The translations under genes were made by a program, and so were the position numbers. The notes beneath the pieces were generated by a model. The model was given only the letters and a program-made list of their open reading frames with translations, did not search any database and was not told the DNA's origin. DNA of 64,000 bases from assembly GCA_965207615.1 (NCBI GenBank), contig CBDBMZ010000003.1, positions 3,949,855 through 4,013,854 on the forward strand, given 5' to 3'. Origin of the DNA: Vicinamibacterales bacterium. Its GTDB lineage: Bacteria > Acidobacteriota > Vicinamibacteria > Vicinamibacterales > UBA8438. How positions within the stretch are numbered: position 1 is the first letter of the stretch; every line of letters starts with the position of its first letter. Shown piece by piece: positions 28,973 through 29,634 of this stretch.

Positions 28973-29212
28973 ATGAAAACCGCCGTTTCACTCCCGGACG
29001 ATCTCTTCCTGTCGGCGAACGACCTCGCGAAGCGACAGGGGATGTCGAGGAGCGAGCTGTACGCCGTCGCACTCGCCGAGTACCTGGCCAAGCACCGCGA
29101 CGCGGACGTCACGTCGAAGCTCAACGAAGTGCTCGCCGCTGAATCGAGCGGCGTCGACCCGGCGGTGCGGGCGGCTCAGGCGCGAAGCGTCGGCTCCCGG
29201 GGGAAATGGTAG
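28973..29212 (+). CDS. Ribbon-helix-helix (CopG/MazE-like) antitoxin
   Basis: MKTAVSLPDDLFLSANDLAKRQGMSRSELYAVALAEYL is an RHH signature. The gene overlaps the toxin start by 7 nt. Confidence 0.8.
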   Translation: MKTAVSLPDDLFLSANDLAKRQGMSRSELYAVALAEYLAKHRDADVTSKLNEVLAAESSGVDPAVRAAQARSVGSRGKW

Positions 29213-29634
29213 TCGCGCGGCGCGAGGTGTGGTGGGCCGATCTAGCCCGCCAATCGTCGCCTAACGGCTCCGCTTGGCGCCCAACCAACCCTCCAGGAGC
29301 CCGCGCCGTTCCACGGCGCGGGCTCCTGGACGAGCCGCGCGGCTCCGAGCCCGGCTTTCCCCATCCCCTGCTCGTCGTCCAGGCGGATGCCTTCAACCGA
29401 AGCAGGCTCCGGACGGTCCTCGGGGTGATCCTGACGTCGAACGCCCGCCTCGTCGACATGCCCGGCAACGTCCTGCTCTCCGCGAAGAGCACCGGCCTGC
29501 CGAGGGACTCGGTCGCCAACGTCACGCAGATCGTCACGCTCGACGAGGGCTACCTCTCCCGCCGGGTCGGGCAGATCTCACCCGGACTGATGGCGCGCGT
29601 CGACAACGGGCTGAGGCGAGTCCTCGCGCTGTGA
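29206..29634 (+). CDS. mazF: MazF/PemK-family toxin carrying a 28-codon in-frame repeat insertion
   Basis: EVWWADL...EPRGSEPGFPHPLLVVQADAFNRSRLRTVLGVILTSNARLVDMPGNVLL...GLPRDSVANVTQIVTLD...VDNGLRRVLAL is collinear with MazF-mt6-type toxins. The exception is residues 14-41, which are encoded by the interspersed repeat. Confidence 0.8.
   Translation: MVVARREVWWADLARQSSPNGSAWRPTNPPGARAVPRRGLLDEPRGSEPGFPHPLLVVQADAFNRSRLRTVLGVILTSNARLVDMPGNVLLSAKSTGLPRDSVANVTQIVTLDEGYLSRRVGQISPGLMARVDNGLRRVLAL
29245..29328 (+). repeat. Structured 84-nt interspersed repeat, copy 3, inserted inside mazF
   Basis: GCCCGCCAATCGTCGCCTAACGGCTCCGCTTGGCGCCCAACCAACCCT is followed by a perfect 16-bp stem, CCAGGAGCCCGCGCCG-TTCCA-CGGCGCGGGCTCCTGG. 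Confidence 0.7.

Follow-up and report, generated by a model that had tools for sequence, protein, structure and literature searches.

What becomes of a toxin gene when a small, structured repeat lands inside it without breaking the reading frame? The question is raised by a mazEF toxin-antitoxin module on a 64,000-nt stretch of DNA from a Vicinamibacterales bacterium (phylum Acidobacteriota; GenBank assembly GCA_965207615.1, contig CBDBMZ010000003.1, positions 3,949,855 to 4,013,854 of the forward strand), which as a whole we call the window and whose positions are counted from its first nucleotide. A preliminary description, made from the sequence alone, had read the mazF gene of this module as interrupted by an 84-nt repeat, and our analysis bears this out: a true copy of an interspersed repeat sits in frame in the mazF of this soil acidobacterium and introduces no stop codon. 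We consider it probable that the event, a recent insertion of a Vicinamibacterales repeat, was a neutral or mildly beneficial accident which most likely weakens or abolishes the activity or the expression of the toxin.

The insertion is defined by comparison with uninterrupted alleles, which the preliminary description had proposed to look for in relatives and which we find at three syntenic loci (L001, L002, and L003). The mazF of these loci is ~96% identical to that of the window and lacks the insert, and in the DNA alignment the sole length difference is one clean 84-column gap. L001 and L002 are the DNA of protein P0001 and L003 is that of P0002; the latter locus lies on a 108-kb contig where PadR, methyltransferase, and CBM9 are neighbors as they are in the window, to which its syntenic region is 88-95% identical overall. 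The empty site reads GAT-CT-GGAC and the filled site reads GAT-CT-[AGCCCGCC...GGGCTC-CT]-GGAC, with the dinucleotide CT on both sides and a 2-nt ambiguity in the bounds, which can be placed at 29244-29327 or equivalently at 29242-29325. At the DNA level the bounds proposed earlier (29245-29328) are therefore 1-3 nt off, although the same 28 codons, 14-41, are removed.

Homologous proteins agree with the DNA alignment. Thousands of homologs were returned when 5.8 billion proteins were searched, and our counts are taken from the best 120, of which 111 are exactly 114 amino acids long (142 minus 28). Both flanking motifs could be located in 95 of the 120, and none of these 95 scored homologs contains extra residues between WWADL and GSE. 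The best match, P0001, is the window MazF minus its insert, with three substitutions. The native protein matches the Pfam profile PemK_toxin (PF02452) only with residues 41-140, equivalent to profile positions 10-109 (74.1 bits; cutoff, 23.1), while after removal of the 28 codons residues 5-112 match profile positions 2-109 with 86.5 bits. Since the insert breaks up the Pfam match and its removal brings the full-length match back, we regard mazF as interrupted.

The insertion is recent: the interrupted allele is found nowhere else, and in the mazF copy the stem of the second of the repeat's two hairpins is a perfect 18 bp. In the JGI metagenome collection, a pattern covering both mazF::element junctions gave 0 matches and a pattern for the left junction gave 6, all of them in unrelated contexts, and the exact window MazF and MazE proteins have no record in the collections searched. 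Between the window and L001, mazF differs by 10 synonymous and 3 nonsynonymous changes, with a pairwise ratio of nonsynonymous to synonymous substitution rates (dN/dS) of 0.10. The branch leading to the window carries 4 synonymous and 2 nonsynonymous changes in mazF (P64S and R99G) and none in mazE; P64S affects a near-invariant proline of the conserved NVLLPA motif. These window-branch changes are too few to separate relaxed from continued constraint.

An allele recorded only once, in DNA where repeats can mislead assemblers, could also be an assembly artefact produced by the repeated sequence. We find this hardly credible, as the insert amounts to exactly one unit and the two halves of the gene are contiguous, its CT|G junction is the same as that of an independent insertion in imuB that is present in several genomes, and the mazF copy has sequence variants of its own and is identical to no other copy in the window.

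The repeat itself belongs to a family with several members in the window. The copies that the preliminary description had placed at 6886 and 16111 hold up in a formal similarity check (nhmmer E = 5e-17 and 2e-23, respectively, next to 4e-22 for the mazF copy). Its 17-mer core GGCGCCCAACCAACCCT (29276-29292), which comprises the last four bases of hairpin 1, the linker, and the next base, occurs three times exactly and five times with at most 3 mismatches in the window, against 0.33 expected. The flanks of the tandem pair at 6802-6966 show no coding-type GC content at third codon positions (GC3). Upstream of the antitoxin gene, recognizable repeat-like sequence is found in L001-L003 at the same place as the degenerate window copy (28842-28909) and is absent from a further locus, L119.

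Minimum-free-energy folding of positions 29243-29330 gives -56.2 kcal/mol (z = -8.45), and the last bases of hairpin 2 are restored mazF sequence. Across 147 unique copies both stems are kept via compensatory changes: in hairpin 1, pair 9-35 is CG in 131 copies and GC in 11, and pair 11-33 is CG in 66, AT in 34, and GC in 9; in hairpin 2, pair 56-82 is AT in 110, CG in 8, and GC in 6. The family consensus is CT-RGCCCGCCMATCGTCGCCTTCGGCTCCGCTGGGCGCCCAACCAACCCTSCAGGAGTCYGCRCCGTTCTACGGCGCAGACTCCT-RG. The insert gives only subthreshold generic hairpin matches against Rfam at a permissive threshold; at the gathering threshold the window has a single match, to a cobalamin riboswitch away from the element. 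A limited literature search found no description of such a repeat for Acidobacteriota or Vicinamibacterales.

Scanning the GTDB species-representative genomes for the exact core returned at least 115 genomic stretches, nearly all from metagenome-assembled genomes (MAGs) of Vicinamibacterales/Vicinamibacteria (Acidobacteriota), together with a handful of evident chance matches in other phyla. A profile built from the core-bearing copies yields 216 matches in ~0.98 Mb, mostly intergenic. They form 155 clusters, of which 118 are solitary and the others are head-to-tail arrays of 2-6 units with a spacing of 80-84 nt. Units of 84 nt make up 43% of copies and units of 83 nt another 29%, and 49% of lengths are divisible by 3. 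We also observe an element variant that is longer (105-110 nt) and carries an extra small hairpin (GCGACCGCAAGGTCGCGC) inside hairpin 1 (L010:~1340-1450, L031:~1640-1750, and L093:5545-5653).

Terminal inverted repeats are lacking: the left end, CTAGCCCGCCCATCG, and the reverse complement of the right end, CTAGGAGTCTGCGCC, have only CTAG in common. The purines of the CTRG motifs at the two ends of a copy are uncorrelated among 93 solitary copies, which argues against a 4-bp target duplication, and both filled/empty pairs (mazF and imuB) show only the 2-nt CT ambiguity at their junctions. We rejected mobilization of the IS5 type, which targets CTAG, in view of the lack of terminal inverted repeats and of matching 4-bp duplications. 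A regular-expression search for an HUH/Y1 transposase motif, a weak test, found none in ~1 Mb of copy-bearing loci. Where intergenic copies of the scanned loci (L004-L118) lie between co-directional genes, they are antisense in 29 of 35 cases and sense in 6 according to our own rough GC3-based gene caller. Either strand-specific insertion or selection that removes sense copies from transcripts could account for this bias.

The label "REP/MITE-like" used in the preliminary description can stand as a description, with the reservation that terminal inverted repeats are missing and that the units are arrayed in direct tandem. As in MITEs (miniature transposable elements with inverted repeats), we find a small size, many copies, presence/absence polymorphism, and occasional gene disruption or in-frame fusion; however, the ends are unrelated beyond the 4-nt palindrome CTAG, which fails the definition of a MITE, and their uncorrelated CTRG motifs argue against a 4-bp target duplication. 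With repetitive extragenic palindromic (REP) sequences, REPINs, and miniature elements derived from the insertion sequence family IS200/IS605, it has in common the lack of terminal inverted repeats and of a clear target duplication, hairpins near both ends, insertion beside a short motif (CT|G, two events), an orientation bias, and a mostly extragenic location. The structural features of IS200/IS605 miniatures are all compatible with the element, as judged from two insertion events and the rough orientation count, and no TnpA partner was found. Unlike REPINs, however, the Vicinamibacterales arrays are head-to-tail and not inverted doublets, so that the REPIN pattern fails, and the 84-nt unit is longer than a typical REP, with no HUH/Y1 transposase near the copies by the weak regular-expression test. 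Mycobacterial interspersed repetitive units (MIRUs) likewise form direct tandem arrays of 40-100-bp units, mostly between the genes of operons and with an orientation bias. By contrast, MIRUs are not known to feature hairpin pairs or insertion within unrelated open reading frames (ORFs), and they are presumably unrelated to the element in sequence.

By analogy, the element may thus resemble single-strand elements of the IS200/IS605 or REP type (no terminal inverted repeats, no clear duplication, hairpins, CT|G, orientation bias), and a site-specific recombinase acting on a CT core is a conceivable route of mobilization as well. As no transposase or recombinase partner was found, the term mobile is based on presence/absence polymorphisms only. 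A further-reaching proposal would take it as an undescribed non-autonomous mobile element of Acidobacteriota, CT|G-specific through hairpin-guided single-strand transposition or CT-core recombination, which recurrently makes peptide loops and would have left mazF as a working toxin with a remodeled gating loop (altered RNA specificity or antitoxin control would be examples). We rate that combination as improbable.

Small repeats inserted in frame into ORFs have a known precedent in the Rickettsia palindromic elements (RPEs) (PMC10969869), and the earlier remark that such an insertion into a toxin gene would be unusual is overstated also in view of the copies in imuB and Ham1/RdgB and of the 49% of unit lengths that are multiples of 3. 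Our screen for intragenic copies was filtered by GC3, because an unfiltered screen for ORFs spanning a copy was swamped by spurious long ORFs in GC-rich DNA. With this filter, copies are found inside imuB of the LexA-ImuA-ImuB-DnaE2 cassette, where genes with one to three in-frame copies (L112:2197-4245 on the plus strand, L056, and the proteins P0121-P0152) encode ImuB proteins of 505 to 682 amino acids in steps of roughly 28 residues. An alignment of 17 ImuB sequences shows presence/absence of the element at two sites and in both orientations. Site A holds one or two sense copies (GPPIVAFGSAGRPTNPARSLHRSTAQTP) or antisense copies (SPRRSTARTPGGLVGRQAEPSGDDWRAR), and site B holds LARQSSPDGSAWRPTNPPGVRAVPRRRLP in 7 of the 17 sequences, in the same reading frame as in MazF. 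At site B, filled (L112 and L056) and empty (L123 and L124) genes differ by exactly 84 nt at GGGCT|GACC, flanked on either side by CT and followed by G. Roughly a dozen of the 84 nt differ between the L112 and L056 inserts in our own unscripted count on the alignment, which suggests that the insert changes faster than its flanks and may encode a passenger peptide.

Searching a 30-residue element peptide against 1.84 billion representative proteins recovered eight proteins, including Ham1/RdgB pyrophosphatases; a peptide search of the 5.8-billion-protein collection gave no match. In these pyrophosphatases (P0246, P0243, and P0242), two tandem in-frame copies split the Ham1 domain, which resumes in frame, and P0243 goes out of frame behind its second copy. 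Overall, intragenic in-frame copies are a small minority, approximately 4 of the 141 clusters examined. In another locus we observe an antisense copy (L114:3767-3851) that forms the C-terminal extension of a gene with a PlsY-looking conserved end (…FTHRSNLARLRQGRE), and this copy seems to have replaced the original stop region.

Like RPEs, the Vicinamibacterales element is a short, structured, multicopy repeat that lies between genes and inside ORFs, where it keeps the frame and adds a peptide, and it has hit several unrelated host genes, here mazF, imuB, and Ham1/RdgB. It differs in occurring in Acidobacteriota, in its 84-nt unit (~100-150 nt for RPEs), in its frequent direct tandem arrays, and in its low intragenic share, which compares with nearly half of the copies for some RPE families. 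The resemblance is one of behavior only, and a sequence relationship is not one we would expect.

These observations also bear on why mazF stays open. An 84-nt unit is 3 × 28 nt, GC-rich, and contains few stop codons, which accounts for the uninterrupted frame; with 49% of copy lengths divisible by 3 and stops rare, frame retention is expected in approximately 1 of 2 insertions and is not evidence of selection. The in-frame state would then be a by-product of the length of the element and not of selection for a new protein.

To ask what the added residues might do to the toxin, we compared the module with characterized relatives. The mazEF module is chromosomal, vertically inherited, and adjoins a PadR gene. 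The ORFs of antitoxin and toxin overlap by 7 nt in the layout of a type II toxin-antitoxin operon, with the small antitoxin gene upstream, and the pair is kept in five lineages, with the antitoxin ORF conserved and syntenic in L001, L003, L119, and L121. The closest solved toxin is the Mycobacterium tuberculosis MazF Rv1991c (5HK0; E = 2e-29, 41-44% identity), which is collinear with residues 1-14 and 42-141 of the window MazF and skips the segment between. Rv1991c/Rv1991A MazEF has the antitoxin gene upstream as well, and its toxin has the same 114-residue architecture once the insert is removed; the window toxin differs from it by 28 extra residues after Leu13 and by a histidine for the second arginine of KRRP. 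The sequence quoted earlier for a "MazF-mt6-type" toxin (WADLGPPSGSQP...RRPVLVIQ) is indeed that of Rv1991c, but the name is wrong: this protein is MazF6 in UniProt and MazF-mt3 in PDB titles, and the MazF-mt6 of the literature is a different protein. The MazF-mt6 paper of Hoffer et al. from 2017 is reportedly about Rv1102c, which is not the closest homolog.

The antitoxin was described earlier as intact, and this is borne out by the absence of any substitution specific to the window lineage and by its homology to M. tuberculosis MazE6 (7WJ0), the closest solved antitoxin, to which residues 1-40 are matched with E = 8.5e-5. Its match to Pfam RHH_5 reaches 18.1 bits, under the cutoff of 26, and there are weak PDB matches to the N termini of CopG-family proteins and EndoAI. 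No NCBIfam model matches the toxin, the antitoxin, or P0001. Between the PadR gene and mazEF lies a segment (28790-28838) that is markedly AT-rich within DNA of ~70% GC and contains two sigma-70-like promoter matches directed toward PadR. In the equivalent intergenic region of L119, we observe an inserted IS5-like transposase gene (DUF772 and DDE_Tnp_1); this transposase beside mazE is unrelated to the repeat.

The preliminary description had located the insert between strands beta1 and beta2, and both the alignment to Rv1991c and the topology of an AlphaFold model agree with this. In the model, beta1 spans residues 7-11 and beta2 spans residues 53-59, with pLDDT of ~42-64 for the insert (14-41) and of ~85 for the core; the insert would lie at the beta1 end of the beta1-beta2 connection of the MazF fold. 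Foldseek aligns the model to Rv1991c MazF structures with TM-scores of 0.84-0.89 (target-normalized) and a probability of 1.00, and the MazF/CcdB-type fold is thus matched, by an AlphaFold2 model of only moderate confidence. We rejected AlphaFold as a test of damage and use its topology alone, since P0001, the uninterrupted control, received a lower score (62.7) than the interrupted MazF (74.5); models scored poorly in 3 of 5 cases for the former and 4 of 5 for the latter, with a shallow alignment of low diversity. The 28 inserted residues are rich in proline and arginine and contain no acidic residues, and the added loop is probably basic, proline-rich, and disordered, as judged from composition and model.

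The preliminary description had further suggested that the toxin may be attenuated because a histidine stands in place of the catalytic arginine. The alignment is correct: His53 aligns with the second arginine of KRRP in Rv1991c MazF and with the arginine of VRP in Bacillus-type MazF, and the canonical arginine is absent. This would also fit a toxin that was already dead through the Arg-to-His change, with the insertion as further decay. However, all of the closest uninterrupted 114-residue relatives have FPHP, and position 53 is His in 25 and Arg in 77 of 102 scored homologs. The His-bearing genes keep exactly 114 codons and show dN/dS values of 0.10-0.28, indicative of purifying selection. 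The histidine thus reads as a trait of the clade in a maintained protein, not as a lesion of the window allele, and because uninterrupted relatives under purifying selection share it, it is uninformative on attenuation; a toxin dead before the insertion is in our judgment very unlikely.

In MazF proteins, the groove that binds RNA and the antitoxin is bordered by the beta1-beta2 region. On our preferred explanation, a lineage-specific, non-autonomous repeat, modally 84 nt long and consisting of two hairpins joined by CCCAACCAACCC, would have entered codon 13/14 of mazF at CT|G, leaving CT on both sides as in the independent imuB event. It would have placed a 28-residue segment between strand beta1 and the short beta1-beta2 loop beside this groove. 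Impairment of the toxin is our best guess and most likely, because a large insertion adjoins the active-site groove and a hairpin pair of -56 kcal/mol begins 38 nt into the ORF. Such an insertion would be tolerated, as loss of a chromosomal toxin would cost nothing while the antitoxin is kept.

Several points weigh against impairment and favor its main rival, namely that MazF is still a working, antitoxin-controlled RNase whose 28 added residues make up a disordered loop on the surface, in the way proposed for RPEs. Impairment is itself an inference. Disorder is predicted for the insert, which sits between elements of secondary structure, and AlphaFold still builds the MazF core, albeit with uninformative confidence. 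The element persists in frame in imuB of several species and splits Ham1 without other damage, in genes that appear otherwise intact, which means that insertion into a surface loop does not have to be inactivating. The low dN/dS relative to L001 and the few synonymous and nonsynonymous changes of the window branch are compatible with continued constraint and give no obvious sign of decay. Predicted compatibility with protein structure has also been noted in a review of RPEs (PMC10969869). However, the position beside the groove, a natural loop that is short and does not vary in length among the 95 scored homologs, the replacement of a near-invariant proline as one of only two window-specific replacements (P64S), and an interrupted allele seen only once all speak against a working toxin, which we therefore regard as possible and not as probable.

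Effects of the insert may alternatively play out at the RNA level, if the two stable hairpins reduce translation of mazF or alter mRNA stability and were selected because they lower the toxin-to-antitoxin ratio. The strongly negative folding energy and z score, the translational coupling of mazF to mazE through the overlapping stop and start, and the scarcity of sense copies between co-directional genes, which suggests that sense copies in transcripts matter, are in line with this. However, ribosomes unwind hairpins in coding regions, a terminator-like U-tract is absent from the element, the orientation bias is equally explicable by strand-specific insertion, and there is no evidence of selection on what is a singleton allele. 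Selection for an RNA-level function appears unlikely to us.

Table 1. Positions of the mazEF genes, the inserted repeat and its parts, and other repeat copies in the window
Feature	Position	Strand	Basis
mazE-like antitoxin gene, 79 amino acids	28973..29212	+	ORF list; stop overlaps mazF start (ATGGTAG)
mazF toxin gene, 142 codons with insert, 114 codons uninterrupted	29206..29634	+	Pfam PemK_toxin, Rv1991c alignment
Inserted 84-nt repeat unit (AGCCCGCC...GGGCTCCT), residues 14-41 = ARQSSPNGSAWRPTNPPGARAVPRRGLL	29244..29327	+	84-column gap; nhmmer E = 4e-22
Hairpin 1 of the element	29248..29279	+	Minimum-free-energy fold; covariation
Conserved unpaired linker CCCAACCAACCC	29280..29291	+	Near-invariant columns of the family alignment
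Hairpin 2, perfect 18-bp stem and 3-nt loop in the mazF copy	29292..29330	+	Fold; covariation
His53 codon (FPHP), where other MazF proteins have the catalytic Arg	29362..29364	+	Alignment
Degenerate older copy, upstream of the antitoxin gene	28842..28909	+	nhmmer E = 4.4e-4
Intergenic copy between divergent genes	16112..16193	-	nhmmer E = 2e-23; GC3-based gene map
Two tandem copies, 6802-6882 (degenerate, E = 9e-4) and 6886-6966 (E = 5e-17)	6802..6966	+	nhmmer
Intergenic copy, antisense to the two co-directional genes around it	1122..1204	-	nhmmer E = 2.4e-10; gene map

Other features of the window are listed here as separate observations. The cobalamin riboswitch (Rfam RF00174, 56.8 bits) is located at 50147-50281 on the minus strand, with three direct repeats of ~42 nt near it (50453-50578). 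Positions 26453-26644 hold a 24-nt tandem repeat (GAGGCGACGGGCCAGCCACCGGAA) that is perfect or nearly so, with at least 6 overlapping copies of 72 nt, and that appears to lie inside a gene syntenic with that of an EF-hand protein in L003; further 72-nt repeats are found at 25756-25961. At 40287-40555, two 66-nt direct repeats (88% identical) are followed by three copies of a 36-nt repeat. Positions 1-2019 and 10565-12633 form a long inverted duplication in several blocks that are 73-81% complementary, presumably paralogous genes in opposite orientation ~9-12 kb apart. Finally, between two conserved genes the window (33344-34319) is ~840 nt longer than L003 (L003:10204-10342), which may be another insertion/deletion.

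The insertion in mazF is real and of a type that is not unprecedented; the lineage and the host gene are new for it. It provides a clean, datable case, in Vicinamibacterales of the Acidobacteriota, of a structured repeat that adds 28 residues without breaking the frame, and together with the copies in imuB and Ham1/RdgB it suggests that the creation of protein loops in the manner of RPEs is not peculiar to Rickettsia. The interrupted and uninterrupted alleles, at ~96% identity, constitute a natural pair that could be used to probe how far the beta1-beta2 region of a MazF6-type toxin tolerates change and whether a histidine can stand in for the catalytic arginine. For genome annotation, it shows that gene calls in Vicinamibacterales MAGs can be inflated or split by such repeats.

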